A stretch of DNA of 64,000 bases from Thermoanaerobaculia bacterium (GCA_017883205.1 JADGNZ010000035.1:444-64443); one strand, 5' to 3'. Positions 805 to 61,357 are shown, counted from the stretch's first letter. Notes: generated from the sequence alone by a model not told the origin. Numbers and translations: made by a program.

Positions 805-927
805 GTGTCGGGTTGTGGGGAGTTGGGTGTGGGGTGTGGGAGCAGAATCAAAGGAACCGCAAGCGTCGTCGATATGCGCTTCGCTGCTTTTGCTCCCACC
901 CCCCACTCCCCTACTCCCCACACCCCC
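805..927. repeat. Intergenic hairpin element. G-rich arm (GTGGGGAGTTGGGTGTGGGGTGTGGGAG), imperfect C-rich complement arm
   Basis: Arms about 811-842 and 893-927 are imperfect reverse complements. The element sits in the divergent region between the DUF2911 gene and the zinc-ribbon gene. Confidence 0.7.
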
Positions 928-946
928 GGACACCAAGGAGAACCTC

Positions 947-1576
947 ATGGTCGCCATCCGCTTCACAGGAAACTACGAAGACCTCTCGACTGACCGCGGC
1001 TATCAGTTCAAGTTTTTCTGCGAGAAGTGCAACAACGGTTACATGTCGAGTTTCAACACCTCGACTGTCGGAGTCCTCAGCTCCGCTGCGCGCGTGGCCG
1101 GAAGCCTGTTCGGAGGCGTCTTCGGAAACGTCGCCAACAGTTCGTACGAGGTGCAGCGCGCCATTGGCGGTCCGGCGCACGACAGCGCGCTGAAGGAAGC
1201 GGTCGATGAGATCTCGCCGATCTTCAAGCAGTGCACGCGCTGCGGGCATTGGGTCTGCGAGCCGGTCTGCTGGAACAAGAAGGCCGGCCTTTGCGAGACG
1301 TGCGCGCCGGACATGGACGAGGAGCTGGCGGCGGCACAGGCCGAGGCGGCGCGGGAACAGGTGCAGACAAAAGCGCGCGAGGTGGACTGGACGAAGTCGC
1401 GCCAGATCGATCAGGTCTCCGGCGCAGTCTGCGCATCGTGCGGCGCGAAATCGCAAGGCGGCAAGTTCTGCCCCGAGTGTGGCACCGCCTACTCCGCGAA
1501 AAAGAAGTGCGCGTCCTGCGGGCATGAGGCCGAGGGGACGCCGAAGTTTTGTCCGGAGTGTGGGGGGAAGTACTGA
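947..1576 (+). CDS. Zinc-ribbon domain-containing protein (double CxxC...CxxC C-terminus)
   Basis: ORF 815..1576. The internal ATG at 947 is preceded by AAGGAG. Repeated CxxC pairs: CTRCGHWVCEPVC, CASCG...CPECG, CASCG...CPECG. Confidence 0.6.
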   Translation: MVAIRFTGNYEDLSTDRGYQFKFFCEKCNNGYMSSFNTSTVGVLSSAARVAGSLFGGVFGNVANSSYEVQRAIGGPAHDSALKEAVDEISPIFKQCTRCGHWVCEPVCWNKKAGLCETCAPDMDEELAAAQAEAAREQVQTKAREVDWTKSRQIDQVSGAVCASCGAKSQGGKFCPECGTAYSAKKKCASCGHEAEGTPKFCPECGGKY

Positions 1577-1595
1577 GCTCTCTTGAAAACCGTTT

Positions 1596-1652
1596 CACGC
1601 GGAGACGCGGAGAAACGCGGAGGATTTCTCCGCTCCTCCGCGTCTCCGCGTG
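1596..1652. repeat. Hairpin (CACGCGGAGACGCGGAG...CTCCGCGTCTCCGCGTG) between convergent genes; terminator-like
   Basis: Perfect inverted repeat with an ACGCGGAG subrepeat, immediately after the zinc-ribbon gene stop and before the 3' end of ddl. Confidence 0.7.
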
Positions 1653-1660
1653 AAAAGCCT

Positions 1661-2668
1661 TTAACGCCTTCGCCCAATCGCGATCTGCTCTTCTAGAAAA
1701 TCGCGAAACGACACACCCGCCTCCCGCAGTTGCTGGGGCACGAGCGAGCTACTCGTGAGCCCCGGCAGCGTATTCCGCTCCAGAAAGTAGAGCCCGTCGT
1801 CCGCGAGGATCAGATCGCTGCGCGAGTACCCTTCGCAGCCAAGAACGGTGTGCGCGACTAACGCCATCTGCTGCGCTTCGTCGCGGATCGCGTCGGGGAT
1901 CTTTGCCGGACAGATCTCGCGGGTTCCCTTGCCGAGGTATTTGCCTTCGTAGTCGAAGGCGAAGCCGGGATCAGTTTCGATCTCGATCACCGGCAGCGCA
2001 CGAGGTCCGTTCTCGCCGTCAACGACACCCACAGTCAGCTCGCGGCCGGCGATGAACTGCTCGAGGATGTAGGGGACTTTCAGCGCGTGGATGGCCGCCA
2101 CGATCGGAGCGAGATCGGTGGTCAGGTCGACGAAGAAGAGACCGCGTGACGAGCCACCGGCGACCGGCTTGAGCACGATCTTCTCGTGGCGCTTGAGCAT
2201 CGTGGCGATGCTGCCATCGATCGCGCGGACGTCGTCGACGACGAGCGATTCGGCGACGCGCAAGTGGTTCTCCACGATCTCCTTCGCGCGTCCCTTGTCG
2301 AAGGCCGCCGCGCTCGCTGCCGACCCTGAGCCGGTGAACGGAATCCCGCGCGCTTCCATCAGACGCTGCACGCCGCCGTCCTCCCCTTCGCCGCCATGAA
2401 GCGCCAGAAGAAAGACGGGATGCTCGACCGGGAGAGTGTCGAGGGCTTGTTCGAGGTCGGGCCAGATGGCCGGCCGCGACGGCTCGAAATCGTTCGTGAA
2501 AGGGTTCTTGTGATGCAGCAGATCGTCGCGATGAACGTCGTGCACCGCGCCGCTCGGAGCCCAGAACCACGCCAGAGGCGCATCGAGTGACCGGACGATA
2601 TTTTGCGCCGATGCTACCGAGACGTGCCGCTCATCGCTGCGGCCGCCGAAGAGAACGATGACTGTCAT
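1661..2668 (-). CDS. ddl: D-alanine--D-alanine ligase
   Basis: MTVIVLFGGRSDERHVS... ATP-grasp Ddl family architecture across the full length. The start is taken at MTV (2666-2668); the upstream part of the ORF is repeat-encoded. Confidence 0.9.
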   Translation of the reverse strand: MTVIVLFGGRSDERHVSVASAQNIVRSLDAPLAWFWAPSGAVHDVHRDDLLHHKNPFTNDFEPSRPAIWPDLEQALDTLPVEHPVFLLALHGGEGEDGGVQRLMEARGIPFTGSGSAASAAAFDKGRAKEIVENHLRVAESLVVDDVRAIDGSIATMLKRHEKIVLKPVAGGSSRGLFFVDLTTDLAPIVAAIHALKVPYILEQFIAGRELTVGVVDGENGPRALPVIEIETDPGFAFDYEGKYLGKGTREICPAKIPDAIRDEAQQMALVAHTVLGCEGYSRSDLILADDGLYFLERNTLPGLTSSSLVPQQLREAGVSFRDFLEEQIAIGRRR

Positions 2669-2692
2669 TGAATGTCCATGGTGCGTTCCGGC

Positions 2693-2791
2693 GGGAGTCG
2701 GGGGTCGGGGGTCGGAGCAAGGCTGCACGATCAAACGCTCGCGCGCTACGCCGCACTTCTCCGACCCCCGACCCCCGACTCCCGACTCCCG
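2693..2791. repeat. Hairpin element GGGAGTCGGGGGTCGGGGGTCGGAG...CTCCGACCCCCGACCCCCGACTCCC
   Basis: Near-perfect inverted repeat with GTCGGGG subrepeats, in the divergent ddl/tlpA intergenic region. Confidence 0.8.
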
Positions 2792-2835
2792 CGAGCCGTC
2801 GAATATCACAATCGCACAGCGCGTTGCGCGCGCAT

Positions 2836-3327
2836 ATGCCGCTGCGAACCAACTCGCTGATCCTCGTCCTCCTCCTGTTCGCGACCACCGCCTCGGCCGC
2901 CGATCTGCACGACGTCAACGACCCCGCCAGGATCAAGAGCTTCTTTCCTCGGAACGCCAGGATTCGCGTCGTGAACATCTGGGCGACGTGGTGCGTCCCC
3001 TGCGTCGCCGAGATGCCGGATCTGCGCATGATCAACGCGGCGTTCGGTCCGGAACTGACGATGGTGGGGGTGTCGATGGACGACATGATCCCGGGCGCGA
3101 AACGCGAGAACGTAGCCCGCTTCCTCGACCAGCATTGGATCGGCTACCTCAATGTTTACTACAAAGGCAACGCCGACGATCTCTCCAGCTACTACCATTT
3201 CGAGGGGGAAATCCCCGTGACGATCGCCTTCGATGCGGCCGGACGTGAGGTCTGGCGCCATCAGGGCCCGATCAAGAGTGGAACGACAATTGACGAGCTG
3301 CGGAAGCTGCTCAGGAGGATGCATTGA
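2836..3327 (+). CDS. TlpA/ResA-like thiol-disulfide oxidoreductase (thioredoxin fold, secreted)
   Basis: Signal peptide MPLRTNSLILVLLLFATTASA and the WCVPC CxxC motif. ATG at 2836 within ORF 2668..3327. Confidence 0.8.
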   Translation: MPLRTNSLILVLLLFATTASAADLHDVNDPARIKSFFPRNARIRVVNIWATWCVPCVAEMPDLRMINAAFGPELTMVGVSMDDMIPGAKRENVARFLDQHWIGYLNVYYKGNADDLSSYYHFEGEIPVTIAFDAAGREVWRHQGPIKSGTTIDELRKLLRRMH

Positions 3328-3923: not shown

Positions 3924-3970
3924 GTCGGCTACGTCAGCCTGCATCTCTCGCATTTGCAGGGAATTCCAAT

Positions 3971-4179
3971 CGAGCGCCTTCTCCCCCACGCTTTTCAGTG
4001 GGGGAGAAGGTGGCGAAGCCGGATGAGGGGGCATTTGACGTCGCGGCACCGTTGCCAAGCAAGAGCCGCGACGTGACGTCACGCCCGGCCTGAACCTCGT
4101 GTCCCGTCGATTGCACAACACCCCTCATCCGCCTTCGGCACCTTCTCCCCTCGAAAAGCACGAGGGGAGAAGGCGCTCG
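3971..4179. mobile_element. MITE-like palindromic element: two inverted copies of an approx 60-bp unit flanking an approx 85-bp core with its own hairpin
   Basis: 3971-4034 CGAGCGCCTTCTCCCCCACGCTTTTCAGTGGGGGAGAAGGTGGCGAAGCCGGATGAGGGGG reappears reverse-complemented at 4119-4179. Each unit has an internal stem CTTCTCCCCCAC/GTGGGGGAGAAG. A solo copy lies at 13057..13140. Confidence 0.6.
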
Positions 4180-4324
4180 ACGCAAAGGGGTCGCTAAAAA
4201 GTTTGAGGATGGGGTGGCGCGAAAGGGGTGCATCGTCTGTGGAAATCGTCACGATCTGGCTGGTTTCCACTCGACGGTTGATGACCGCACCGTCGAGAAC
4301 AAGAGATTGTCCTCGAAAGATGAC

Positions 4325-4520
4325 GATTCCACTCAAGAGCTGGTGGGATTGCCTTGAAGACAAGTTGATTTCACTCAAAAGATCGCGACATCGCCTTAAA
4401 ACAAGTGGATTCCACTTAAAAGATCGCAACATCGCCTTAAAACAAGCCGATTTCACTTAAAAGAAGGCGACATCGCCTTAAAACAAGTGGATTTCACTTG
4501 AACGATGACGGCGTTGACAC
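4325..4520. repeat. Tandem direct repeat, approx 41-bp unit x about 4.5 (GATTTCACTTAAAAGATCGCGACATCGCCTTAAAACAAGTG)
   Basis: Head-to-tail copies, each containing the palindrome GGCGACATCGCC. AT-richer than the surroundings. No unique spacers between copies. Confidence 0.85.
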
Positions 4521-4580
4521 ATCCCCATCGCTGAGCGCCACGCCAGGACTGTTCCAGCATGAGGCGAATTGGGCAGGAAC

Positions 4581-7125: not shown

Positions 7126-7134
7126 GGAGCGCTA

Positions 7135-7211
7135 TCTTAATCTGCGTCGATCTGCGCTCATCTGCGGATGAGAATCTTTATCCGCAGATGACGCAGATCG
7201 ACGCAGATACA
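7135..7211. repeat. Hairpin element with CATCTGCG-type subrepeats (ATCTGCGTCGATCTGCGCTCATCTGCGGAT...ATCCGCAGATGACGCAGATCGACGCAGAT)
   Basis: Perfect inverted repeat. Same family as 10935..11006. Confidence 0.8.
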
Positions 7212-7262
7212 AAAAGAGCCGCCTTGCCGGCGGCTCTGTTGATCAGGTGTGTCGTCGATCCG

Positions 7263-8324: not shown

Positions 8325-9142
8325 TCCAGCGGCAGGACGTCCGGAAGAAGCTTCGCCGGGGCGTCTACATCGTCCCCACGTCGTTCACGATGCTGAACAT
8401 CTTCTTCGGCTTCCGTTCGATCGTGAACAGCATGCGCGGCGCCGAGGCGATTGCGCTCGGGAGGATGGACCTGGCGGTGCACGCGTTCGAGATCGCCTGC
8501 ATTTCGCTGCTGATCGCCGCGGTATTCGACACGTTCGACGGACTCGTAGCCCGGCAGCTCGGCGCAACGAGCGAGTTCGGGAAGGAGTACGACTCGCTCG
8601 CGGACGTCGTCACGTTCGGCTGCGCCCCCGCCGTCCTCGTCTACGCCTGGGGCCTTCAATCCCTCGGCAAGCTCGGTGTCGGCATCGCCTTTCTCTTCCT
8701 GGTCAGTGTCTCGCTACGGCTGGCGCGATTCAACGTCATGACCGGCAAGACTGACTACCGCTACTTCGTCGGACTGCCCAGTCCGGCCGGAGCGCTGACG
8801 CTCGCCGCGGTCATCTACTACGCACCGGCTCCGGTGCTCGACCATCGCTTCGCCAGCGTGATCATGATCCTCACCGCCCTCACGGCCTTCGCGATGGTCT
8901 CCCCGATTCGCTGGCGCGCGCAGAAGGGCATCAATTTCCAGAAGGGACGATCGCTGATGTACATCGTGGTCATCGCCGCGATCCTCGCCGTAGCCTGGGC
9001 CTGGCCGCGTCCGTTCCTCCTCTTCTTCGCCATCGCCTATCTCGCCTCGGGGCCGCTGATCCGCCTTTGGACGATCGTGTTCCCACCGCAGATTCCCATT
9101 GATGGGGCGTCGCTGGTCGGGAGTCGGGAGTCGCAGCCGTAG
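8321..9142 (+). CDS. pssA: CDP-diacylglycerol--serine O-phosphatidyltransferase
   Basis: CDP-alcohol phosphatidyltransferase motif DTFDGLVAR...G...S.FG...DSLAD. ATGA overlap with psd. Confidence 0.85.
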   Translation: MIQRQDVRKKLRRGVYIVPTSFTMLNIFFGFRSIVNSMRGAEAIALGRMDLAVHAFEIACISLLIAAVFDTFDGLVARQLGATSEFGKEYDSLADVVTFGCAPAVLVYAWGLQSLGKLGVGIAFLFLVSVSLRLARFNVMTGKTDYRYFVGLPSPAGALTLAAVIYYAPAPVLDHRFASVIMILTALTAFAMVSPIRWRAQKGINFQKGRSLMYIVVIAAILAVAWAWPRPFLLFFAIAYLASGPLIRLWTIVFPPQIPIDGASLVGSRESQP

Positions 9143-9247
9143 GGTGTCGTTTGTCGGCGGTTGGGAGTCGTAGAAAAAAGGCCGAGCTCTCATCAGTTCC
9201 GCGCCGGTTTCTTCTTCGACACCCGACCCCCGAACACCGACACCCGC
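9113..9247. repeat. Hairpin element GGGAGTCGGGAGTCG...CGACACCCGACCCCCGAACACCGACACCC; left arm overlaps the last codons of pssA
   Basis: Imperfect inverted repeat. The left arm encodes the pssA C-terminal residues VGSRESQP. Confidence 0.65.
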
Positions 9248-9270
9248 ATGTGCTACAAATCGCGCCGCAA

Positions 9271-10269: not shown

Positions 10270-10276
10270 GGGCGCA

Positions 10277-10410
10277 GTGGATTGGTGATTAGTGATTAGT
10301 GGATAAATGACCCGCGGGTTTGCCAGTTACCGATCCACGAATCACTAGAATCCGACTGATCCGACTGATCCGACTGATCCGACTGATCTCCTGATCTCTC
10401 ACTAATCTGA
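10277..10410. repeat. Composite repeat: GATTAGTGATTAGTGGAT inverted repeat plus CCGACTGAT x4 tandem plus GATCTCCTGATCTCT motif
   Basis: 9-bp unit CCGACTGAT repeated 4 times, with flanking imperfect inverted repeats. Shares GATCTCCTGATCTCT with the elements at 52746..52924. Confidence 0.75.
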
Positions 10411-10934: not shown

Positions 10935-11006
10935 CATCTGCGCACCATCTGCGTCATCTGCGGAAAAAGCTTTGGTCCGCAGATTACGCAGATGGGCGCA
11001 GATGGG
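10935..11006. repeat. Hairpin element CATCTGCGCACCATCTGCGTCATCTGCGG...CCGCAGATTACGCAGATGGGCGCAGATGGG
   Basis: Inverted repeat with three CATCTGCG subrepeats per arm, after the bcp stop. Confidence 0.8.
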
Positions 11007-14601: not shown

Positions 14602-14704
14602 AAAGCACAGACAAGAGTGTCTGTGCCACATTGAGCTGCGCGACAGGAAGCCCTGAGCAAAGAAGCAGGTGCGATGGGGCACAGACACTCTTGTCTGTGC
14701 TTTC
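14602..14704. repeat. Hairpin element AAAGCACAGACAAGAGTGTCTGTGCC...GGCACAGACACTCTTGTCTGTGCTTT
   Basis: 26-bp perfect inverted repeat separated by about 50 nt. Each arm is itself palindromic. Confidence 0.85.
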
Positions 14705-22424: not shown

Positions 22425-22562
22425 GCGCTCGCTGGCGCGAGCGCGTTGTCGGTTGTCAGTTGTCGGTTGTCAGCGTGCGATATCCGGGGCCAACGCGCAA
22501 TCAGCGGCGCAGCGAGACGCTGGCAACTGGGACGGCAACCCATAACCGACAACAGACAACGC
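22425..22562. repeat. Hairpin element GTTGTCGGTTGTCAGTTGTCGGTTGTCAG...CCATAACCGACAACAGACAAC, with an adjacent GCGCTCGCTGGCGCGAGCGC palindrome
   Basis: Arms of tandem GTTGTC(G/A)G subrepeats and an imperfect reverse complement about 60 nt downstream. Confidence 0.75.
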
Positions 22563-22588
22563 GCGGCGGCGCTAGCCGCCGCGCATTT

Positions 22589-25277: not shown

Positions 25278-25315
25278 TCGATCTCTTTCACTCTTCACTC
25301 TTCACTCTTCGAATC

Positions 25316-26780: not shown

Positions 26781-28247
26781 ATGAGCTTCACGCGAGACGC
26801 TTTCATCAGCTACGCCCACATCGACAACGAACCTCTCCCTGATGAGAAGGAAGGGTGGGTGACTGTCTTCGACAAGGCGCTTCGACAGGTGCTCAGCCGT
26901 TACACGGGCAAGGATGCGAACATCTGGCGGGACGAGAAGCTGCAGGGGAATGACGTCTTCTCCGATGAGATCCTCAGCCAGTTCCCCGAGACGGCCGTGC
27001 TCGTGTCCGTCCTGTCGCCGCGCTATCTGAAATCGGAATGGTGCAGCAAGGAGATGACTCAGTTTTACGAGATCGCGGAGAAATCGGGCGGCATCATCAT
27101 CGGCAACAAGTGCCGCATCTTCAAAATCATCAAGACACCGTTCGGAAGAGACGAGTCCCTGCCGCCAGAAGTGGCGGGAGTGCTTGGACGCATTCTCGGC
27201 TACGAGTTCTATCACCTCGACGCCGACAACACGCCGCAAGAGCTCGACCCCGCTTATGGCGATTCGGCACGCCAGGATTTCCTGAAGTCCGTGACACGGG
27301 TGGCCTGGCACATCAAGGAGTTGCTCGATGTGATGTCGAGTGCGCCCGCGGCTGGAAAGGCCAGGCCATCGATCTACCTCGCAGAGTGCACGCGTGACCA
27401 GCGCGACGCGCGCTCAACTCTCGAGGGGGAGCTGAAGCGCCTCGGATACGACATCCTTCCCGATTCCCAGCTCCCCACCGACTCAGTGGAGTACGTCGCT
27501 GAGGTCGAAAAGCAGCTCCAGCAGTGCGATCTGTCGATCCATCTCGTCGGCAGCAGCTACGGTGCCGTGCCTGACGGAACCGATCAGTCGGTGGTCGCAC
27601 TGCAGAACGCATCGGCCGTCGGCGTCAGTAGGAAGAGCGGTCTTGCCCGCGTCATCTCCGTCCCGGCGGATTTGCAGACCACCGATCCGCGCCAACAGGC
27701 TTTCATCACCGCGCTGCATGAGGATGCCGGCTTACAGTTCGGCGCGGACCTCATCACCGGCGGGATCGAGGATCTGAAGAGCGCCGTGCTGGCGGCACTT
27801 GCCCGGGTCGAGCGAGCTACCAGCATTCCCGTTGCCGGCGCAGATAAGACGCTGGTCTACGTGATCTGCGACCCTCGTGACGTTCAAGCCACCATACCGT
27901 TGGCAAAGAGTCTCGTCGCCCGCGGCATGAGAGTCGAGCTGACGGTTTTCGACGGCGACGCGGCGGCTGTGCGCGAAGCGAATGAACAGCTCATGACGAC
28001 TGCCGGCGCGATCGTTCTCTTCTGGGGCGCCGGCGACGACACATGGCGCGCCTACCAGCAGAGTGATATCCGCAAGAACCAGGGTGCACGCCGCGACAAC
28101 CCGCCGAAGACGATCACGTACGTCGCCGGGCCCGCGACGAGCAAGAAGCAGTTTCTTCTGCAAACCGAAGCCGGCGTCATCGACGCCTCGAGCGCTCCCG
28201 AGGAGCAGGCGATCGCGGCTCTTGCCAAGGCGCTGGGGCTTACGTGA
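26781..28247 (+). CDS. TIR-domain protein with two additional C-terminal Rossmann/flavodoxin-like modules
   Basis: N-terminal DAFISYAHIDNE...IWRDE...AVLVSVLSPRYLKSEWCSKEM matches the TIR betaA/alphaC motifs. Further modules start at SIYLAECTRD and TLVYVICDPRD. The stop overlaps the downstream start (GTGATG). Confidence 0.8.
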   Translation: MSFTRDAFISYAHIDNEPLPDEKEGWVTVFDKALRQVLSRYTGKDANIWRDEKLQGNDVFSDEILSQFPETAVLVSVLSPRYLKSEWCSKEMTQFYEIAEKSGGIIIGNKCRIFKIIKTPFGRDESLPPEVAGVLGRILGYEFYHLDADNTPQELDPAYGDSARQDFLKSVTRVAWHIKELLDVMSSAPAAGKARPSIYLAECTRDQRDARSTLEGELKRLGYDILPDSQLPTDSVEYVAEVEKQLQQCDLSIHLVGSSYGAVPDGTDQSVVALQNASAVGVSRKSGLARVISVPADLQTTDPRQQAFITALHEDAGLQFGADLITGGIEDLKSAVLAALARVERATSIPVAGADKTLVYVICDPRDVQATIPLAKSLVARGMRVELTVFDGDAAAVREANEQLMTTAGAIVLFWGAGDDTWRAYQQSDIRKNQGARRDNPPKTITYVAGPATSKKQFLLQTEAGVIDASSAPEEQAIAALAKALGLT

Positions 28248-30679
28248 TGTCGACGAATCCGTTCCCCGGCTTACGTCCATTCCTTGAAGAAGAAGAGCAT
28301 CTCTTTTTCGGGCGTGAATCGCAGGTCGACGCCATGGTCGACACGCTTGCCGCGTCGCATTTCCTGGCTGTGGTCGGGACATCCGGATCGGGAAAATCGT
28401 CGCTCGTAAACTGTGGTCTGCGCCCGGCCCTTCATCGGGGAATGATGGCGCAAGCCGGCACGTCGTGGCGTATCGCCCAGTTCCGGCCGGGAAACAATCC
28501 GATCTGCGCGATGGCGGAAGCGCTGGCCAAAGAGGGGGCTCTCTACGGCGGTGCCGTGGAAGGTCCCTTCACTCAAAGCGAGATGATCGAGTCGAGTCTT
28601 CGCATGAGCAAACTTGGGCTGCTGGATGTCTTCGAGCAAGCCCGTCTGCCCCAGGGAACGAATCTGCTCGTGGTGGCCGACCAGTTCGAAGAGCTCTTCC
28701 GATTTCAAGAGAAGAGCGCAATCGGAACCAACGCGCGGAACGATCTCGCCGACCAGGCCACGGCGTTCGTCAACCTCCTCCTGGAAGTGCGCGGACACAA
28801 AGACCTGCCCATCTACGTCACGCTCACGATGCGCTCTGACTTTCTCGGCGAGTGCGCGCAGTTCTACGGACTACCGGAGGCGATCAACGGGGGCCAGTAC
28901 CTCGTGCCGCGGATGACTCGTGACGAGCGCAGACGCGCCATCGCCGGTCCTGTCGGAGTCGGCGGCGCGGAGATCGATCCGGTCCTGCTCACGCGCCTGG
29001 TCAACGACGTCGGCGGGAATCCCGATCAGCTTTCGATCCTGCAGCATGCGCTCAACCGCACCTGGCGGCAGTGGGAACGCGAGGGCAGCAGCGGTCCGCT
29101 GACCCTGCAGCACTACGAGAAGATCGGCACGATGGCCGGCGCGCTCGATCAGCACGCGGAAAAAGCCTATGCGGAGCTCACCACGCCAAGGCAGCGCGAA
29201 ATCTGCGAGAAGCTCTTCAAAGCGATTACCGACAAGGCCAGCGATGCCCGCGGTGTGCGGCGGCCTACGAGCGTGGACACACTCTGCAAATTGACGGGTG
29301 CGACGATCGAGGAGCTCACCAGTGTCGTCGACGTCTTCCGTAAGCCCAGCCGCTCCTTCCTCATGCCGCCATTCGGCGAGGCCCTGAAGGCCGATACGGT
29401 GATCGACATCTCCCACGAGAGCCTGATGCGTGTTTGGGACCGCCTGCGGATCTGGACCGAGGAAGAGGCGCGATCGGCGGGAACCTACCGCCGTTTGAGC
29501 GAGACGGCCTCACTGGAGCTTCACAACGACGCGAGCCTCTGGACCGGCCCGGATCTGGCGGGAGCGCTGGCCTGGCTGAACGACGAAAAACCGGAAGCCT
29601 GCTGGGCCGAGCGGTACGCGCCGGGCTTCAACGAGGCGATGGCGTTCCTTCGGAAAAGCACGGACGCGCAGGCCGCGGAACAAAAGCGCCATCGCGATGA
29701 AGCGTTGGAGAAGGCTCGGACCCAGGCCCGCTATGCCCGGGCGATTGCATTGCTTTCCGTGGCGCTGGTTCTCGCCCTGGCTCTCGGGGGCCTGTTAATT
29801 TACCGAAACGCCGCCACCAATTACCGGAACGCCGCCACCGCGCACGAGAGGGAAAAGGAGAAGCTCAACCGGTCCGCAAGGTCACTGCGGCAACAGGTTA
29901 TTGCCTCAGAGCAACAGGTCGTCAGCTCACAGCAACAGGTCGTCAGTTCACAGGCAGTCGCCGTTCAGTCGTTTGCGGTTGACAAGCAGCGGCCCGAGGA
30001 CGCTCGGAGAATTCACCAGAGCTTCGAGGCGCTGACCCATATTTCGGCGATCACAGCAACCGCTTCTCCGGAGCATTACACGAAGATCCAGTATTTCAAG
30101 AAAGCGACGGACTCACAGAAACTCGCCATGGCGCTGGATGACCTCGGTTTCGCGGTAAGCGAGGAAACCGCACGTACTCCCCGCGAGACGAATTGCATCT
30201 GGTACGGATCCGCAGTGCCGGATAACGATGTCAAGCTTGTCGCGTATGCCGTCATGCGAGCCGGCATCGATCTTAAGGGTATTCAGCCGCAGAACGTCGA
30301 GATCGGCTTCGATCCGGAGGTAATCCAAGTCGGCCATAACCCTTACTTGGATGAACAACCTCCATTCACACCGGACATCCTCAACACAACGCCGCCAAAC
30401 CAACTCCGTCGCATCGAAGTAGGGGCCAAGTCGAACGTTACCGGCATAATTACCAAACTTGATCCGAAGGCGCAGGAGGGTTGGATCCAGGGGCCGAAGG
30501 GCCCGGTGTATTTCCAGTTCTCGGACGATCCGCCGCCGAAGCCATTTAACGTCGGCGATGCCGTGACATTCACTGTCTACTACGGCAAGCGAATGTACGC
30601 GGAGAGGGTCACGGCACGAACGGAACAGCCTCGGCCCGGATCGAAAGCGGCGAGCGAGCTCAAAGCTGGCGTCCAGTAG
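28244..30679 (+). CDS. STAND-class P-loop NTPase with a predicted transmembrane helix, coiled-coil/tandem-repeat segment and C-terminal cold-shock-like OB fold
   Basis: NPFPGLRPFLEEEEHLFFGRESQVD...LAVVGTSGSGKSSLVNCGLRPAL (Walker A), LLVVADQFEELF (Walker B). Transmembrane-like LLSVALVLALALGGLLIY around aa 512-530. C-terminal TGIITKL...VYFQFSD...NVGDAVTFTV is CspA-like. Confidence 0.8.
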   Translation: MMSTNPFPGLRPFLEEEEHLFFGRESQVDAMVDTLAASHFLAVVGTSGSGKSSLVNCGLRPALHRGMMAQAGTSWRIAQFRPGNNPICAMAEALAKEGALYGGAVEGPFTQSEMIESSLRMSKLGLLDVFEQARLPQGTNLLVVADQFEELFRFQEKSAIGTNARNDLADQATAFVNLLLEVRGHKDLPIYVTLTMRSDFLGECAQFYGLPEAINGGQYLVPRMTRDERRRAIAGPVGVGGAEIDPVLLTRLVNDVGGNPDQLSILQHALNRTWRQWEREGSSGPLTLQHYEKIGTMAGALDQHAEKAYAELTTPRQREICEKLFKAITDKASDARGVRRPTSVDTLCKLTGATIEELTSVVDVFRKPSRSFLMPPFGEALKADTVIDISHESLMRVWDRLRIWTEEEARSAGTYRRLSETASLELHNDASLWTGPDLAGALAWLNDEKPEACWAERYAPGFNEAMAFLRKSTDAQAAEQKRHRDEALEKARTQARYARAIALLSVALVLALALGGLLIYRNAATNYRNAATAHEREKEKLNRSARSLRQQVIASEQQVVSSQQQVVSSQAVAVQSFAVDKQRPEDARRIHQSFEALTHISAITATASPEHYTKIQYFKKATDSQKLAMALDDLGFAVSEETARTPRETNCIWYGSAVPDNDVKLVAYAVMRAGIDLKGIQPQNVEIGFDPEVIQVGHNPYLDEQPPFTPDILNTTPPNQLRRIEVGAKSNVTGIITKLDPKAQEGWIQGPKGPVYFQFSDDPPPKPFNVGDAVTFTVYYGKRMYAERVTARTEQPRPGSKAASELKAGVQ

Positions 30680-30682
30680 TTA

Positions 30683-30808
30683 CCGGCCGGCGCGTTGGCG
30701 ATTCGCTCGATCGGCGCCGGCTTCCGGTCTTCGCTCACTTTCACGCAGACCACCTGCGCCTCGGTGACCAGGACTTTGTTCTGGTGAAGAGTGTCACGCG
30801 CAGACGCG
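30683..30808 (-). pseudogene. 3' fragment of a diverged paralog of the adjacent acyl-CoA thioesterase gene
   Basis: The minus strand encodes ...RDTLHQNKVLVTEAQVVCVKVSEDRKPAPIERIANAPAGN. The intact gene at 31278..31685 ends ...GTDPQKKVLVTEAQVVYVNVGEDRKPTPIVRIANALSR. About 85% nucleotide identity over about 100 bp. Upstream, the reading frame runs into the repeat array. Confidence 0.55.
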
Positions 30809-30835: not shown

Positions 30836-31094
30836 CACCCTGAGTCTCTTGCGAAAGACTCCCGAGTCTTTTGCGAAAGACCCCCGAGTCTTTTGCGAAA
30901 GACCCCCGAGTCTTTAACGAAAGACCCCCGAGTCTTTTGCGAAAGACCCCCGAGTCTTTAACGAAAGACCCCCGAGTCTTTTGCGAAAGACCCCGAGTCT
31001 TTAACGAAAGACCCCCGAGTCTTTTGCGAAAGACCCGGGTGTCATTATCGAATGACCCGGGAGTCATTGTCGAATGACTCGGGAGTCATTCGCG
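30836..31094. repeat. Array of 12 contiguous palindromic 22-bp units: 9 of type TCTTTTGCGAAAGACCCCCGAG/TCTTTAACGAAAGACCCCCGAG, then 3 of type (A/G)TCGAATGACCCGGGAGTCATT
   Basis: Each unit is an inverted repeat (AAAGACTC/GAGTCTTT or AATGACTC/GAGTCATT) around a C/G core. The two main variants alternate. No unique spacers. Confidence 0.9.
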
Positions 31095-31164
31095 AAAGGG
31101 CACGGCAGAGGAGCTAACTGCATGGGGGTTCAGTAATTTAGGTGCTTCATCTGACAGATCGCAA

Positions 31165-31255
31165 GGGGGCAGGTCGAAACCGAAACCGACGACAGCTTGA
31201 GTAGAGCGGAATGCTCGCAGCGAAGTGTCGTCGGTTTCGGTTTCGACCTGACCCC
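31165..31255. repeat. Perfect 25-bp-stem hairpin CAGGTCGAAACCGAAACCGACGACA...TGTCGTCGGTTTCGGTTTCGACCTG
   Basis: Perfect inverted repeat with a GAAACC subrepeat, immediately downstream of the minus-strand thioesterase gene. Confidence 0.85.
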
Positions 31256-31277
31256 TTCGCTTCTTCCGCTTCGCCTC

Positions 31278-31685
31278 TCAACGGCTCAGCGCGTTGGCGA
31301 TGCGCACGATCGGAGTCGGCTTCCGATCTTCGCCCACGTTCACGTAGACCACCTGCGCCTCGGTGACGAGGACTTTCTTCTGTGGGTCGGTACCGCGGAT
31401 CGCCTCACAAACGACTTTGACCGTGATCGAGGTCCTGCCGATGCGGAGGGTCTCCGTCCAAAAGCTGATGAGGTCACCGACGAAGACGGGCTGGTGAAAG
31501 ACGATCTTGTCCATCGACACGGTCAGCATCAGCCGGGAGCCCTGGCGGCGCGCTTCGATCGCGCCGGCCTGGTCGATGTAGCTGAGGATCACGCCGCCGA
31601 AGATCGTGCCTTGCGCGTTCGTGTCGCGCGGCATCATCAAGACCCGGATGGCGGGCTCTGCCCAACGTTCGGCGATTTCAGTCAT
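31278..31685 (-). CDS. Acyl-CoA thioesterase (hotdog fold, YciA-like)
   Basis: VLMMPRDTNAQGTIFGGVILSYIDQAG, typical of YciA-type thioesterases; 135 aa. Confidence 0.85.
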   Translation of the reverse strand: MTEIAERWAEPAIRVLMMPRDTNAQGTIFGGVILSYIDQAGAIEARRQGSRLMLTVSMDKIVFHQPVFVGDLISFWTETLRIGRTSITVKVVCEAIRGTDPQKKVLVTEAQVVYVNVGEDRKPTPIVRIANALSR

Positions 31686-35301: not shown

Positions 35302-35308
35302 GGTTCGC

Positions 35309-35393
35309 GGGAGTCGCTGGTCGGGAGTCGGGGGTCGGAGAGCACTGGCAACGTTTGCGCTCCGACCCCCGACTCCCGATCTGCGACCCCCAC
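35309..35393. repeat. Hairpin element GGGAGTCGCTGGTCGGGAGTCGGGGGTCGGAG...CTCCGACCCCCGACTCCCGATCTGCGACCCCC
   Basis: Inverted repeat with GTCGGG subrepeats between the FecR-like gene and mreB. Confidence 0.8.
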
Positions 35394-35450
35394 TTCAGGG
35401 CAACGCTCTTGCAGCAAGCCTCCCAAACGTCAAAAAAGGACAAGATCTAG

Positions 35451-36479: not shown

Positions 36480-36591
36480 CGGGGTGTGGGGAGTGGGGAG
36501 TGGGGAGTGGTAGAGCGCGGCGAGTGGAAGCTCATCCCGAATCCGGCTCCGTTTCCTCTCCCACACCCCACCCCCCACTCCGCACGCCCAC
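36480..36591. repeat. Hairpin element with a canonical G-quadruplex arm GGGGTGTGGGGAGTGGGGAGTGGGGAGTGG...CTCCCACACCCCACCCCCCACTCC
   Basis: Four GGGG tracts with 3-nt loops on the plus strand, and an imperfect C-rich complement about 50 nt downstream. Located between mreB and mreC. Confidence 0.8.
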
Positions 36592-36625
36592 TGGCTCAGA
36601 ATCTGCTCCATAACGCGCACGAACC

Positions 36626-37995: not shown

Positions 37996-38114
37996 CGGGG
38001 GTCGGCTTTCGGGGGTCGGGGGTCGGAGCAAGGCCTGCTACATGCAAGACCGATAATTGAACACCGATAATAGAGCTCGATCCGACACCCGACTCCCGAA
38101 CCCCGACACCCGAG
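37996..38114. repeat. Hairpin element CGGGGGTCGGCTTTCGGGGGTCGGGGGTCGGAG...TCCGACACCCGACTCCCGAACCCCGACACCCG
   Basis: GTCGGGG-subrepeat arms. The AT-rich loop carries the direct repeat ACCGATAAT x2. Located between mreD and mrdA. Confidence 0.8.
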
Positions 38115-40107: not shown

Positions 40108-40252
40108 GTATTGCCTTCGGCGTTGTCGGTTCATTGCCTGCGGCGTTCTCACATCCTTTAATCAACAGCCTGAACTTGGCTCACAATGACAACGCCCAAA
40201 CGCTCTCAACCGACAACGCCGAAGGCAATCAACCGATAACGCCCAAGGCAAT
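40108..40252. repeat. Hairpin element ATTGCCTTCGGCGTTGTCGGTT...AACCGACAACGCCGAAGGCAAT, plus an extra partial copy
   Basis: 22-bp perfect inverted repeat separated by about 75 nt between convergent genes. The loop and flank contain repeated AACGCCCAA/ACAACGCC motifs. Confidence 0.8.
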
Positions 40253-40256
40253 CGCA

Positions 40257-44098: not shown

Positions 44099-44125
44099 AT
44101 CTTCGATCCTGATCGCTTGACCTGA

Positions 44126-44172
44126 GCCGCGCGGCGTGTGGAGATCCTCCACGCGTCGCGCGGTTTTTCTTT
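44126..44172 (+). terminator. Rho-independent terminator after the tail-fibre-like gene
   Basis: GCCGCGCGGCGTGTGGAGATCCTCCACGCGTCGCGCGG stem-loop followed by TTTTTCTTT. Confidence 0.6.
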
Positions 44173-44202: not shown

Positions 44203-44240
44203 GAAAAAAGCACGGGGCGCGGCGGAAGACCGCGCCCCGT
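44203..44240 (-). terminator. Rho-independent terminator downstream of ftsZ (end of the dcw cluster)
   Basis: Minus strand reads GGGGCGCGGTCTTCCGCCGCGCCCC then GTGCTTTTTT. Confidence 0.6.
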
Positions 44241-52725: not shown

Positions 52726-52745
52726 GTGCTCGGTTTTCGTTTTCG

Positions 52746-52924
52746 AGAGATCAGAGACAAGAGATCAGAGATCGGAAAAAAACCGCCGCGATCTCCTGAT
52801 CTCTGATCTCTAATCCCTTGTCTCTGCTCTTCTCACGTTTTCCAGAGATCAGAGACAAGAGATCAGAGATCAGGAAAAACCTGCCACGATCTCCTGATCT
52901 CTGATCTCTAATCCCTTGTCTCTG
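52746..52924. repeat. Two tandem copies (about 98-bp period) of a hairpin element GAGATCAGAGACAAGAGATCAGAGATC...GATCTCCTGATCTCTGATCTCTAATCCCTTGTCTCTG
   Basis: Copies at 52746-52828 and 52844-52924 are nearly identical. Each is an inverted repeat with GATCAGAGA subrepeats. Located between mraY and murD. Confidence 0.85.
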
Positions 52925-52930
52925 CTTTTC

Positions 52931-55410: not shown

Positions 55411-55420
55411 GAATGCCTCC

Positions 55421-55529
55421 GGGGGTGGGGAGTGGGGAGTAGGGAGTGGGAGTTTAAGCGCCGCTGGGAGTAAGCAGGCGAAGTGGGGATCAAATCTCCC
55501 ACACCCCACACCCCACTCCCCACTCCCAA
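55421..55529. repeat. Hairpin element with G-quadruplex-capable arm GGGGGTGGGGAGTGGGGAGTAGGGAGTGGG...CTCCCACACCCCACACCCCACTCCCCACTCCC
   Basis: G-tract arm and C-tract complement about 45 nt apart, between murF and murE. Confidence 0.8.
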
Positions 55530-59130: not shown

Positions 59131-59516
59131 CAGCGGGAACCTGCGGGGGTGGGTTGTGGGGGGTGGGGAGTGGGAGCAGAATCCGGCGGCGGTGACTGGA
59201 CCATCACGACCACGCGCGGATCGGTGTGCTGGAAACCGAGCTCCGTGGCGCGCTGTTCGACGGCGCCGAGCGAGGTGCGACGATCGAGCTCGAGCTGCAG
59301 CGCACGGTTCGCGTTCTCGATCTCCTGTTTCTTCTTCTGCAGGCGCGTCGCTTCGTGTCCGAGACGAATCACCTCGAGGTTCTGCCAGGTGAAGAGCAGG
59401 AGGAAAAGTCCGATCGGAACTCCCAGGCCAAGAACGGCAAGCAGCTCACGGAAGCGCTTGCGGTCGCGCTCGCGAACGATGTGGGAGTTTTCGATCGATT
59501 TCTTCTGCGCGTACAT
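59130..59516 (-). CDS. ftsL: Cell division protein FtsL with a Pro-rich C-terminal tail
   Basis: Transmembrane helix LLAVLGLGVPIGLFLLLF plus coiled-coil. The stop overlaps the ftsI start (ATGA). The tail PPPDSAPTPHPPQPTPAGSR is encoded by the C-rich strand of a G-tract repeat. Confidence 0.7.
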   Translation of the reverse strand: MYAQKKSIENSHIVRERDRKRFRELLAVLGLGVPIGLFLLLFTWQNLEVIRLGHEATRLQKKKQEIENANRALQLELDRRTSLGAVEQRATELGFQHTDPRVVVMVQSPPPDSAPTPHPPQPTPAGSR

Positions 59517-59544
59517 GCGGGGAACCTTTTCCGGGGGACGTCAC

Positions 59545-59692
59545 GGAGCCAGGGAACAAGGGTGAAGATCTGCCTACAAGCACGACCCGGAAACCATCCA
59601 CACCCACCCACGCTCCCCCAGCCACCCCTCCCGAGCTCCCGCGGCGCACACACGCCCACCCTTCCCCAACCTTCACCCTTGTTTCCGGGCTC
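59545..59692. repeat. Large stem-loop GAGCCAGGGAACAAGGGTGAAG...CTTCACCCTTGTTTCCGGGCTC with C-tract-rich loop
   Basis: 22-bp perfect inverted repeat separated by about 105 nt, between rsmH and ftsL. Confidence 0.75.
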
Positions 59693-59745
59693 CGGTTTAC
59701 TGCGCGCTCCAGCTCCTTCGACTCCGAGCTACGAGCACTTACCTG

Positions 59746-60696
59746 TCAGCTCTCCGCGACTTCCTGAGAGCTGACAGCTAAGAGCTTCTCCGCAACTCGC
59801 AACTTCGCGCTGCGCGACCGCGGATTGCGATCAATTTCTTCCTCCGAAGCAGTGACCGGACGGCTTGTCAGAATCTTCACGACCTCTTTCGCACCGCACC
59901 CGCAGACCGGCAGGTTCGGGGGACAGGTGCACTCCCCTTCCAACCGCCGCAATGCACGTTTGACGATGCGATCCTCGAGTGAATGGAACGCGATGATTGC
60001 GATGCGCGCTCCCCTTTCCAGAACGCTGACGGCGTCATCAACGAACTTGTCGAGTCCCACCAACTCCTCGTTTGCGGCGATGCGAAGCGCCTGGAACGTG
60101 AGCGTCGATGGATCGATCTCGCGAAACCGCGGCTTCTTCACGCTCCGCACGATCTCCGCGAGCCGTGCCGTCGTTTCGATCGGCCCCTCGGCACGCGCAT
60201 TGACGATCGCTCGAGCGATGCCGCGCGCCATCGGCTCTTCGCCGTATTCGCGCAGGATCGTCGCGAGCTCGCGCTCGCCGAGCGTGTTGACCAGCTCCGC
60301 GGCTGTCGTCGACTCCGGCCCCATCCGCATGTCGAGCGGCGCGTCGTAGCGGAATGAGAATCCGCGCGATGCGTCATCCAATTGCATAGACGAGACGCCG
60401 AGGTCGGCGAGAAGTCCGCTGACCGACTCGATCTTCTGCTTCTTCAGGATGTCAATGAGCGTCTCGTGGCGGCCCTGTGCGAGCGTCACGCGGTCTCCGA
60501 ATTTCTCCAGCCTCGCTGCCGACGCGGTCAGCGCCGCCGGATCGCGGTCGATGCCCAGGAGCCGGATCGATGGGTAGCGCGTCAGCAGTGCTTCCGCGTG
60601 TCCACCGAGCCCGATCGTGGCATCGACGAGCGTTCCGTCATCGCGCGAGGGACGGAGAAACTCGACGATTTCGCTTAAAAGAACCGACTGGTGCAT
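59746..60696 (-). CDS. rsmH: 16S rRNA (cytosine1402-N4)-methyltransferase RsmH (MraW)
   Basis: HQSVLLSEIVEFL...DATIGLGGHAEALL...LLADLGVSSMQLD. Confidence 0.9.
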   Translation of the reverse strand: MHQSVLLSEIVEFLRPSRDDGTLVDATIGLGGHAEALLTRYPSIRLLGIDRDPAALTASAARLEKFGDRVTLAQGRHETLIDILKKQKIESVSGLLADLGVSSMQLDDASRGFSFRYDAPLDMRMGPESTTAAELVNTLGERELATILREYGEEPMARGIARAIVNARAEGPIETTARLAEIVRSVKKPRFREIDPSTLTFQALRIAANEELVGLDKFVDDAVSVLERGARIAIIAFHSLEDRIVKRALRRLEGECTCPPNLPVCGCGAKEVVKILTSRPVTASEEEIDRNPRSRSAKLRVAEKLLAVSSQEVAES

Positions 60697-60702
60697 GACA
60701 TC

Positions 60703-61137
60703 TCACACACCGTGCAACTCCAACTCTTTCCAATCCTCGGCGCTCATCGGCGTCTCGGACATCCGCTGCTGGATCTTTTCGCCGTTCTCGACGATGAGGT
60801 GGTCCGTGTTCCCGAGGACGACGACGTCTTCGGTGATGCCGGCGACGTTGCGAAGGATCGTCGGGATCAACACCCGCCCCTGCGCATCGATCGTTGCCGC
60901 GTGGCCGAAGAAGTTCACCTTTTCCATCAACTTGTTCTTCGCCATCGACGACGACGGCACTTTGGAAAGGCGTCCCTGGTACGCGTACCAGACCGCCATG
61001 GGATAGATGAGAGCCCGCTCTCCGTCCATCGAAGTGATGAAGCACTCGGAGCCGTGCTGCTCTTCAATGAGCTTGCGGAAGTTCGAGGGGATCTTGAGAC
61101 GACCCTTCTCGTCGACCTTCGCCGGGGCATGCCCCAT
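60703..61137 (-). CDS. mraZ: Transcriptional regulator MraZ
   Basis: Two MraZ repeats with DEKGRLKIP and DAQGRVLIP. The start is uncertain: 61137 (MGHAPAK), or 61155. Confidence 0.8.
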   Translation of the reverse strand: MGHAPAKVDEKGRLKIPSNFRKLIEEQHGSECFITSMDGERALIYPMAVWYAYQGRLSKVPSSSMAKNKLMEKVNFFGHAATIDAQGRVLIPTILRNVAGITEDVVVLGNTDHLIVENGEKIQQRMSETPMSAEDWKELELHGV

Positions 61138-61191
61138 CAAGACTGGCTCGACCATTTCCGCTCTGACTTTCGTGTTTCGAAGGCTCCTTGT

Positions 61192-61227
61192 ACCACTACC
61201 GACCACTACTGTCCACAAAAATCCACT
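61192..61227. promoter_or_regulatory. Putative MraZ operator: four GTGGW boxes at exact 10-bp phasing (seen as CCAC on the plus strand)
   Basis: Plus strand reads taCCACtaccgaCCACtactgtCCACaaaaatCCACtcac. The mraZ strand reads GTGGA-N5-GTGGA-N5-GTGGT-N5-GTGGT. This resembles the E. coli MraZ TGGGN direct repeats with 5-nt spacers. Confidence 0.5.
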
Positions 61228-61274
61228 CACGGTAGAAAAAAGGGGGGAGATCGCTCTCTCCCCTTAACGGACCC

Positions 61275-61357
61275 GCGCTTCAGCGGCGTGGCCCGCGACG
61301 CGGAACGGTAAGGCACTTGCGAGGCGGCAACCCAGCGGGCCACGTCCGCTGAAAGCG
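61275..61357. repeat. Hairpin GCGCTTCAGCGGCGTGGCCCGC...GCGGGCCACGTCCGCTGAAAGCG (plus a small GGGGGGAGA/TCTCTCCCC hairpin at 61251-61272)
   Basis: Approx 22-bp imperfect inverted repeat with a 38-nt loop, downstream of a minus-strand hypothetical gene and upstream of the dcw promoter region. Confidence 0.7.

Follow-up and report, generated by a model that had tools for sequence, protein, structure and literature searches.

Hairpins with tandem-repeat arms form a lineage-wide class of intergenic elements in a Thermoanaerobaculia clade

Tandem-arm hairpins in the 64-kb window

The window analyzed here is a 64,000-nucleotide (nt) stretch from a Thermoanaerobaculia bacterium of an uncultured soil lineage of Acidobacteriota (GCA_017883205.1, JADGNZ010000035.1:444-64443) that carries, among other genes, ddl, mreB, mreC, mreD, mrdA, mraY, murD, murE and murF. 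An earlier reading of the sequence alone, hereafter the original prediction, described about 20 hairpins in the spacers of this window, with arms built from short tandem subrepeats. The gene names that it used are confirmed: Pfam supports the DUF2911/zinc-ribbon, Ddl/redoxin, MraY/MurD and MurE/MurF neighbors, and the identities of MreB, MreC, MreD and the penicillin-binding protein are supported by the called genes of relatives. Sixteen elements of the window fit the tandem-arm architecture and about eight unit types cover all 16 (Table 1); the hairpins at 14602, 59545 and 61275 are genuine hairpins whose arms lack tandem subunits. Scans of the window for tRNA and tmRNA genes detected none, and an Rfam scan gave no match at the gathering threshold.

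Our own inverted-repeat scan (8-nt seed, arms of at least 16 nt, at least 80% complementarity, span of at most 260 nt) yields 22 clusters in the window against a mean of 2.2 (maximum 7) in 100 dinucleotide shuffles. Under a stricter cut of at least 22 matched bp, 11 clusters remain in the window against 0.03 in the shuffles. A separate repeat search returns 76 inverted pairs within 200 nt, the top pairs being the same as in our scan; the longest pairs fall where the original prediction had placed its hairpins, and their repeated short units are visible on reading the sequence. The internal periodicity score of the arms reaches at least 8 in 11 of 21 clusters, compared with 2.3% of random window segments. 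Tandem Repeats Finder (TRF), which is independent of the scan, places arrays in the hairpin arms, with a period of 7 at 10 of the 16 elements. Finally, 14 of the 15 elements tested have predicted RNA folds of -47 to -75 kcal/mol (z of -3.8 to -11.9), the sole weak fold belonging to the degenerate element at 9105. Shuffles, periodicity, TRF and folds together establish a real and pervasive architectural class. Nor are the elements assembly artefacts, a condition that had been named as refuting: three contigs of different samples (L084, L085 and L086; L plus a number labels a relative's contig or locus throughout) are 99.97-100% identical across their elements, and orthologous elements are kept between the window and L087.

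Several details of the original prediction call for revision. Tandem subunits are indeed present, with a dominant period of 7 rather than a range of 6-9 bp. The copies do not each have a different sequence, as units recur among window sites: GGGRGTC at 2691, 9105, 35308 and 37996; GGGGWGT at 810, 36482 and 55421; ATCTGCG at 7140 and 10945; GTTGTCG at 22441 and inside the element at 40110; and GAGATCA twice, at 52746 and 52843. That nearly every intergenic space holds such a hairpin is too strong a statement, given that 15 of the 29 spacers of at least 60 nt contain a tandem-arm hairpin and 20 contain some hairpin element.

Table 1. Hairpin elements of the window. Coordinates are those of the whole stretch; the last column gives the predicted RNA fold.
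Position	Element	Location	TRF period (positions)	Fold, kcal/mol (z)
804..927	GGGGWGT-type heptamer hairpin	between divergent DUF2911 (-) and zinc-ribbon (+) genes	7, both arms (804/895)	-74.8 (-8.4)
1593..1655	ACGCGGAG (8-nt) unit hairpin, arms 20/20 bp	between convergent zinc-ribbon gene (stop 1576) and ddl (stop 1661)	8 (1597/1627)	-51.6 (-9.6)
2691..2792	GGGRGTC heptamer hairpin, arms 26/26 bp	between divergent ddl (-) and redoxin/TlpA-like (+) genes (Pfam)	7, both arms (2692/2761)	-75.4 (-8.4)
7129..7219	ATCTGCG-core hairpin; three cores per arm, 2-3-nt spacers mirrored between arms		10 (7140/7183)	-58.9 (-10.2)
9105..9250	degenerate GGGRGTC-type element	left arm overlaps 3' end of CDP-alcohol phosphatidyltransferase gene	7, both arms (9116/9217)	(-2.2)
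10277..10400	(GTGATTA)3-arm hairpin; right arm interrupted by solo (CCGACTGAT)4 array		7 (10280); 9, 100% match (10350)	
10935..11006	second ATCTGCG-core hairpin	6 nt past AhpC-like stop codon (Pfam)	10, right arm only (10987)	-52.0 (-11.9)
22441..22564	GTTGTCR heptamer hairpin	between convergent genes	7/14; 7 in left arm only at score used (22445)	-62.7 (-3.8)
31163..31257	hairpin, 32-nt arms with (CGAAAC)2.5; arms 31/32 bp	21 nt from 4HBT thioesterase gene stop codon	6, both arms (31175/31231)	-72.1 (-10.7)
35308..35391	GGGRGTC hairpin	7 nt past FecR-like stop; upstream of sigma-54-like motif and mreB	7, both arms (35308/35362)	-71.8 (-10.8)
36481..36589	GGGGWGT hairpin; orthologous to L087 element, left arm differs	3 nt past mreB stop; upstream of TGGC-N8-TGCT motif and mreC	7, both arms (36481/36560)	-71.6 (-6.1)
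37996..38113	GGGRGTC hairpin	fills mreD/mrdA junction	7, both arms (37996/38082)	-59.4 (-5.5)
40110..40253	23-nt-unit (ATTGCCTKCGGCGTTGTCGGTTS) hairpin	between stop codons of mrdA and convergent S4-domain gene	23, right arm only (40188)	-64.0 (-9.3)
52746..52830	GAGATCA-unit hairpin, first tandem copy	mraY/murD junction	7, both arms (52746/52790), plus 98-nt duplication	-47.1 (-5.5)
52843..52924	GAGATCA-unit hairpin, second tandem copy	mraY/murD junction	7, both arms (52843/52888)	-52.9 (-7.9)
55421..55527	GGGGWGT hairpin	murE/murF spacer; abuts murF ribosome-binding site	7, both arms (55421/55498)	-72.2 (-7.6)
14602..14703	inverted pair of REP-like palindrome GCACAGACA-N4-TGTCTGTGC; other element kind, arms without periodicity			
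59544..59694	plain inverted repeat; 24-nt arms, 103-nt C-rich loop, no tandem units			
61270..61357	plain stable hairpin, no tandem units, no Rfam match; arms GCTTCAGCGG.GTGGCCCGC ... GCGGGCCAC.CCGCTGAAAGC	1.1-kb region upstream of first dcw-cluster gene		

Distribution, arm architecture and position in spacers

Relatives were collected through an MreB-based retrieval of 80 loci, nearly all Acidobacteriota and mostly of the class Thermoanaerobaculia by record titles, to which 10 soil-metagenome contigs found by exact-protein match and 80 more loci from an MraY scan of metagenomes were added. Each genome is represented by 21-64 kb, about 1% of any one genome. The closest relatives of the window, L087 and L091, are about 90-92% identical to it at the nucleotide level. 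Of the 130 tandem-arm elements counted in 1.57 Mb, 67 repeat with a period of 7 and a further 13 with one of 14 or 21. Close relatives have 151 intergenic arrays, of which 116 show a period of 7; an inverted partner lies within 260 nt for 91 of these 116. In the more distant MreB set the figures are 51 of 64 and 42 of 51. An independent replicate on the dcw region gives period 7 for 98 of 159 arrays (69 of the 98 paired), along with 47 period-8 arrays (30 paired).

Outside the clade the signal fades. Contigs whose MraY is only 55-64% identical carry one heptamer array, which is unpaired. Inverted-repeat clusters of at least 22 bp occur at 1.7 per 10 kb in the window (62% GC) and at 1.0-1.2 per 10 kb in two sets of close relatives (63-64% GC), compared with 0.07-0.09 per 10 kb in two more distant sets (67-69% GC). 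Long inverted repeats are thus more than 10-fold rarer outside the clade, in contigs of equal or higher GC, and the possibility that they reflect a general property of high-GC or shuffled sequence, the other ground on which the class might have been discarded, does not hold. At the orthologous mreB-mreC spacer, most close relatives have a tandem-arm hairpin starting 0-5 nt past the stop codon, with units that vary by genome (GGTTGCTNA, GTCCTGA, GGTTCCTCG, GAGTTGCA, GGAGGAAA, GGTTTTC, GTCGGCG and others); in a few the spacer holds a plain hairpin or a REP-like palindrome, or is without either. The elements make up a class of palindromic repeats found throughout this Thermoanaerobaculia clade, and we found no paper on repeats in Thermoanaerobaculia.

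A typical element spans 102 nt, with arms of 28 nt (about four heptamers) and a loop of 39 nt (all medians). The 65 heptamer elements resolve into 51 distinct consensus units, and their 5' arms consist of 40% G, 24% T, 20% A and 16% C. The 5' arm is the G-richer of the two in 90 elements against 19 (p=3e-12), and in 86 arrays against 11 in the replicate. Because reverse-complementing a hairpin leaves it G-first, this polarity is intrinsic and strand-symmetric and does not reflect a choice of strand. A G-quadruplex motif is present in 12 of 114 5' arms; about four units per arm are found across all unit types. Arms can be very unequal, as in L009, where 2-3 units on one side face about 13 on the other, and the ATCTGCG elements combine a perfect 7-nt core with variable spacers. 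We rejected the idea that the units serve as three-frame stop carriers, many of them being free of stop trinucleotides when read by eye.

The elements start a median of 5 nt past the upstream stop codon (interquartile range 2-19), and only 5 of 114 are genic. Occupancy is 9.7% for co-directional junctions, 9.9% for convergent ones and 7.8% for divergent ones. Before both mreB and mreC, the element sits between the stop codon and a sigma-54-type -24/-12 motif (window 35398-35413, GGCAACGCTCTTGCA, before mreB; 36592-36607, TGGCTCAGAATCTGCT, before mreC), and the motif before mreC is kept in most close relatives (TGGCAGGAAACCTGCT and variants). These motifs suggest that mreB and mreC have putative sigma-54-type promoters of their own in this clade. 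The pattern TGGC-N8-TGCW is not enriched in the window (2 matches vs 3.3 expected), being local to the mreB and mreC promoters and lying outside the elements. The elements occupy the dispensable part of a spacer, right after a stop codon and upstream of a promoter or ribosome-binding site.

The original prediction argued from placement inside operons and in divergent promoter regions that the hairpins are not simple terminators, a conclusion that our data bear out. Only 6% of elements have at least five T in the 10 nt downstream, loops have the 39-nt median given above, divergent spacers are occupied about as often as convergent ones, and tight operon junctions are filled. U-tract terminators of the canonical type do occur in these genomes, where they are conserved (window 44124-44166 and 44212-44240), and a terminator consensus scan gives strong matches, with stems of 12 and 20 pairs, only at these two sites between 44.1 and 44.2 kb. 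The remaining matches are short stems near chance expectation (18 vs 12.9), none of them in the tandem-arm hairpins, whose loops exceed the 8-nt limit of the scan. Canonical intrinsic terminators are accordingly ruled out. The intra-operon part of the argument is sound for mreD/mrdA and mraY/murD and weaker for the mreB/mreC gap, because the element there lies upstream of the conserved sigma-54-type motif.

Some heptamer arrays reach into genes or lie within them. At window 9105-9142 an array occupies the 3' end of a pssA-like gene, at 59145-59174 a GGGGGTG/GGGGAGT array of 4.3 copies lies in an ftsL-like gene, and at about 9930 in L125 a (ACCGGCA)3.4 array, absent from L127, is found at the end of murF. 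By running into the 3' ends of open reading frames (ORFs), or being contained there in frame, such arrays alter protein C-termini. A solo (TTCACTC)3.4 array with a 100% match lies just upstream of an MgsA-like gene at window 25287-25310; the array scan gave it no inverted partner, and its flanks were not inspected further.

Turnover and dispersal

Comparison of orthologous spacers, which the original prediction had proposed, shows different elements to have been gained independently at the mreD/mrdA and mraY/murD junctions. The sharpest view comes from L083 and L084, two contigs of the same species (97.9% identical) in which every internal indel of at least 5 nt lies in an intergenic hairpin element. 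Four differences were read between them: one extra GGGACGA unit in a left arm only; a 126-nt (AGCTSTT)4 hairpin gained in L083 at an mreD/mrdA junction that otherwise measures 6 nt; a GTAG-headed REPIN of L084 that interrupts the loop of a heptamer hairpin found intact in L083; and a heptamer hairpin swapped for a REP-like palindrome. L087 likewise has one GTCGGTT unit more than the window. No hairpin indels separate the pair L082 and L089, and the alignment of L125 with L127 is too diverged beyond the dcw cluster for insertion boundaries to be read.

Flanking the 126-nt gain in L083, about 20 nt from the 3' end of mreD agree with the allele of L087 and the window and not with that of L084, which indicates that the element was imported by homologous recombination; spread between lineages by recombination is therefore shown. 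The same mreD/mrdA junction is empty (1-6 nt) in L001, L004, L006, L012, L081, L084 and L090, and elsewhere holds at least five unit types (GGGGGTC, AGCTSTT, the 23-nt unit, GAAGGCA and GGCGTCA). In L005 the right arm of one type stands there beside an element of another type. The FecR-like/mreB spacer is occupied by a GGGRGTC element in the window and, in L087 at 90% identity, by a GGGGWGT element with an unrelated loop.

Most relatives have mraY and murD overlapping by ATGA, and in L091, which is 92% identical to the window, 8 nt separate the two genes; in the window the junction measures 205 nt and holds two tandem hairpins. At least 10 other lineages have filled this junction independently, with different units or with REP-like palindromes, and stop and start codons were kept each time via a junction duplication of variable length, 4-10 nt. 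Examples are CTGCGATGAG in L113, GATGAGCA in L098 and ATGAGCA in L095, with ATGAAGA/ATGAAAA also seen among L095, L098, L113 and L130. These duplications could be target duplications or simply the minimum needed to keep both genes intact. Elements are nested in L082 and L108, and in the window the (CCGACTGAT)4 array is a new array inside the older right arm of element 10277. Since close relatives may have or lack an element at essential operon junctions, the elements are evidently dispensable there and are not strong terminators.

Units are shared within genomes. At different sites, 20% of within-genome pairs have units within one mismatch of each other, against 4.4% of pairs between genomes (odds ratio 5.4, p=1.6e-6), and the sequence difference between copies that was to set these hairpins apart from REP families is overstated to that extent. 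Some window copies have irregular stretches in common as well, namely GTCGCTGGTCGGGAGTCGGG in elements 35308 and 9105 and GGTCGGAGCAAGGC(C)TGC in the GGGRGTC copies 2691 and 37996. An all-against-all loop BLAST found no loop homology between non-orthologous heptamer-arm copies. Such homology was confined to the 23-nt-unit family, in which the loop of window element 40110 is homologous to those of L088 12508 (the mreD/mrdA site), L088 14712 and L087 14637. Its defined ends (ATTGCC...GGCAAT) and conserved loop recur at mreD/mrdA (L005 and L088) and at a site downstream of mrdA (the window, L087, L088 and L005). It behaves like a true dispersed element.

REP-like palindromes, GCACAGACA-N4-TGTCTGTGC, make up a distinct family, present at window 14602-14703, at about 5780-5800 in L084, and in L006, L024, L025 and L113. 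It has variants such as GGACAGGCA...TGCCTGTCC, often forms inverted pairs and is common to species at non-orthologous sites.

Relation to described repeats and origin

An excess of heptamer repeats in bacterial intergenic regions has been known since the cyanobacterial short tandemly repeated repetitive (STRR) sequences. Drosophila foldback (FB) transposons have long inverted arms of short tandem subrepeats around a variable center and are kilobase-scale and transposase-associated; with their eukaryotic host and size, they offer an architectural analogy only. The closest described match is instead the GGGAATC heptamer arrays of Xanthomonas (Rehm et al. 2015, PLoS One, PMC4692102), which are 89-93% intergenic, lie a mean of 28 nt from the upstream ORF and far nearer to it than to the downstream one, and include 70-75 convergent inverted pairs with stem-loop potential among about 186 arrays, so that about 75% of the arrays are in such pairs. 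Their G-rich strand is the coding strand downstream of ORFs, four units are preferred, the arrays vary in length and sequence between close species, and no function was identified (PMC4692102). The same study reports that the Xanthomonas repeats form G-quadruplexes (G4) in vitro and are mostly transcribed, and describes GGGGA(C/T)T arrays in Nostoc. Heptanucleotides are given as the most abundant long simple-sequence repeats (SSRs) in many prokaryotes, with a slippage hypothesis, by Mrazek and co-workers (2007) as cited in PMC4679880 and PMC4692102; Rehm et al. and MacGregor 2015 (PMC4679880) each cite both the excess and polymerase slippage. Nostoc PCC 7120 carries the heptamer TTGTCAG (PMC2408588).

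The elements described here resemble the Xanthomonas arrays in being intergenic, near an upstream ORF, arranged in convergent inverted pairs (78-82% of arrays here), G-first, built of about four units and variable between relatives. They share every architectural feature of that class except the single G4-forming unit: Xanthomonas and Nostoc have one dominant unit of this kind per genome, unlike the unit diversity and scarce G4 motifs found here. Further differences are that those arrays are under-represented between divergent ORFs and reported from genomically stable regions, whereas the present elements show no such deficit and are the main sites of indels, and that the host phylum is Acidobacteriota. 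With SSR and STRR heptamers they have in common the period of 7, a proposed origin by slippage and some units (TTGTCAG); those repeats are described mainly as direct arrays, whereas about 80% of the arrays here are inverted pairs forming hairpins. Like REP, BIME and REPIN sequences, they are abundant intergenic palindromes, often past stop codons and in inverted pairs, with species-specific repertoires; unlike REP and REPIN sequences, they have no conserved palindrome and no GTAG/CGTC head, and their arms are tandem arrays of diverse units around unconserved loops. Genuine GTAG-headed REPs and REPINs coexist with them in the clade (L084 1325-1545, L081 5540-5740, and mreB/mreC of L017 and L034, e.g. 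GTAGCCCCCGGCTTGAGCCGGGGGAC). Intrinsic terminators, too, are GC-rich hairpins past stop codons, with stems of 5-14 bp against about 28 bp here and loops of 3-8 nt, and the elements differ from them also in lacking a U-tract and in occurring in divergent spacers and tight operons. The statement that this is not a described element class thus needs qualification: heptamer excess and inverted Xanthomonas arrays were on record, and the diversity of units departs from that one-unit class. What is new is the different phylum, the very diverse units, the very high density and the well-resolved dynamics.

In the earlier-described heptamer repeats, the 7-nt period, the inverted pairing and the function are unexplained, and this clade is a natural experiment. 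It builds the same architecture from dozens of unrelated units, at roughly one element per 4-10 kb, which argues against a G-quadruplex or a sequence-specific binding protein as a general explanation, and arms favor about four units even where they lack G4 potential. Dated events (a single-unit change, import by recombination, nesting, independent colonization of overlapping essential-gene junctions) make the mechanism testable. As the main indel sites between the two same-species contigs compared, the elements could, in these abundant soil bacteria, also confuse gene-start calling, operon prediction and strain-level assembly.

We favor, with modest confidence, the interpretation that these are DNA-level, slippage-driven palindromic SSR elements, mostly inverted pairs of heptamer arrays. 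Arrays would grow by DNA-polymerase slippage in 7-nt steps, and the arms would be kept mirror images of each other by hairpin-templated copying or intra-strand template switching. For this proposal, which the original prediction had already raised, the 7-nt steps are seen directly as the unit changes between L083 and L084 and between L087 and the window, and we infer the polymerase slippage behind them. Complementarity between arms is 91% in register and 79% after a shift by one unit, the latter equal to the unit-to-unit identity within an arm; with a single unit repeated along both arms, the hairpin would withstand register shifts, and structure would persist while sequence turns over. Origin and spread would take place at the DNA level and be largely selfish or neutral, with elements accumulating where DNA is dispensable.

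Several observations weigh against this interpretation. Pure in-situ slippage explains neither the inverted pairing of about 80% of arrays, nor the G-rich 5' arm of 90 of 109 elements, nor the recurrence of a unit at several sites of one genome with unrelated loops. No template-switching or fold-back event was observed directly, and permuting unit order gives weak evidence of mirror symmetry in an under-powered test (28.1 vs 25.8 matches, median p 0.35). Some type of hairpin fills the mreB/mreC spacer of most close relatives, which hints at selection for structure, and with about 1% of each genome sampled, full-length donor copies may have been missed.

The recurrence of units is what one would expect of non-autonomous mobile elements resembling MITEs (miniature inverted-repeat transposons) or foldback elements, in which the arms would be terminal inverted repeats built of subrepeats and copied by an enzyme encoded elsewhere. 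This we regard as unlikely for the class as a whole, even though the 23-nt-unit family possibly fits it with its defined ends and conserved loop at non-orthologous sites, and though the irregular stretches common to window copies, the filling of tight or overlapping junctions with stop and start kept by short duplications, the nesting and the mutual replacement all speak for it. Shared internal sequence, a mark of MITEs, is seen in the 23-nt-unit family and not in heptamer-arm elements within the roughly 1% of each genome sampled; the loops of the latter are site-specific. Moreover, 51 different terminal repeats in 65 elements are too many for a few transposases, the junction duplications vary in length and would be demanded by selection alone at an ATGA overlap, the one traceable recent gain (L083) came by homologous recombination rather than transposition, and no transposase was found in the window.

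Similarly doubtful is the proposal that the hairpins are selected RNA structures (terminators or insulators without a U-tract, REP-like 3' stabilizers or intercistronic RNase III sites), with selection acting on the stem only and leaving the sequence free. Stems of about 28 bp are long enough for RNase III. The stems are very stable, the elements start close behind stop codons and upstream of the promoter-like motifs before mreB and mreC, and a hairpin of some kind is found in the mreB/mreC spacer of most close relatives as noted above. The G-first polarity is the same for transcripts from either side, which would fit folding before Rho loads on a C-rich 5' arm; we speculate that Rho would have access to a C-rich 5' arm for as long as its partner had yet to be transcribed, and that this would make the polarity independent of direction. 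Transcription of most Xanthomonas heptamer repeats (PMC4692102) points the same way. We find, however, no signature of selection on the sense transcript: in co-directional contexts the G.U and A.C mismatches of the sense strand number 51 and 37, not a significant difference, and the sense fold is not the more stable one, the antisense being slightly stabler (+1.9 kcal/mol, p=0.013). The rarity of T-tracts in genomes that conserve canonical U-tract terminators, the equal frequency in divergent spacers and the presence or absence between close relatives at essential operon junctions argue likewise. Under the slippage interpretation an RNA role is plausible as a secondary matter, though unaccompanied by a supporting sequence signal: once transcribed, the stems might serve as barriers at 3' ends, as weak attenuators or as substrates of RNase III.

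A dedicated, structure-directed process that writes arms at hairpins or breaks, in place of generic slippage, seems very improbable. It might consist of repeated 7-nt staggered cleavage and fill-in on both sides of an extruded hairpin, or of adding G-rich units from a template to each 3' end of a break, joined head to head in the manner of a telomere fusion. If true, it would cover four features at once: the period of 7 nt, arms that mirror each other, a G-first polarity common to both strands, and the duplications at filled ATGA overlaps. It would also account for the excess of heptamers that other bacteria show. Arrays of binding sites for repeat-recognizing proteins, another suggestion of the original prediction, or G-quadruplex/i-motif elements are scarcely credible, since 65 heptamer elements use 51 units, with about eight unit types in the 64-kb window alone, and arms of about four units occur whether or not a G4 motif is present, for all that the ATCTGCG elements look iteron-like, that GGGGWGT and GGGRGTC arms contain four G-runs and that the Xanthomonas repeats form G4 in vitro (PMC4692102).

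Other repeats and a variable region were noted in the same window. A small palindrome of 22 nt (CCCCGAGTCTTTTGCGAAAGAC) is repeated in tandem about 12 times at positions 30838-31098. An array of period 22 at 5092-5587 of L082 is similar to it, and the spacer with the window array is absent from L087 and L005. The stretch at 30680-30800, past the stop of an nSTAND-like gene, resembles a diverged partial copy (about 80%, by eye) of the 3' end of the 4HBT gene (31278-31400), and the 22-nt array and the hairpin at 31163 lie between these two copies. In the 657-nt redoxin/PAP2 spacer, an AT-rich 41-nt tandem repeat (4351-4506; 3.8 copies, 85% match) adjoins a plain inverted repeat with 30-nt arms (4001-4150). 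Two genes at 26781-30679, annotated in L087 as TIR_2 and nSTAND1/AAA_16, occur only in the window, L087 and L005, where the conserved MgsA-like AAA gene lies on one side of them and the 4HBT gene on the other; the region looks like a small variable defence-like island.

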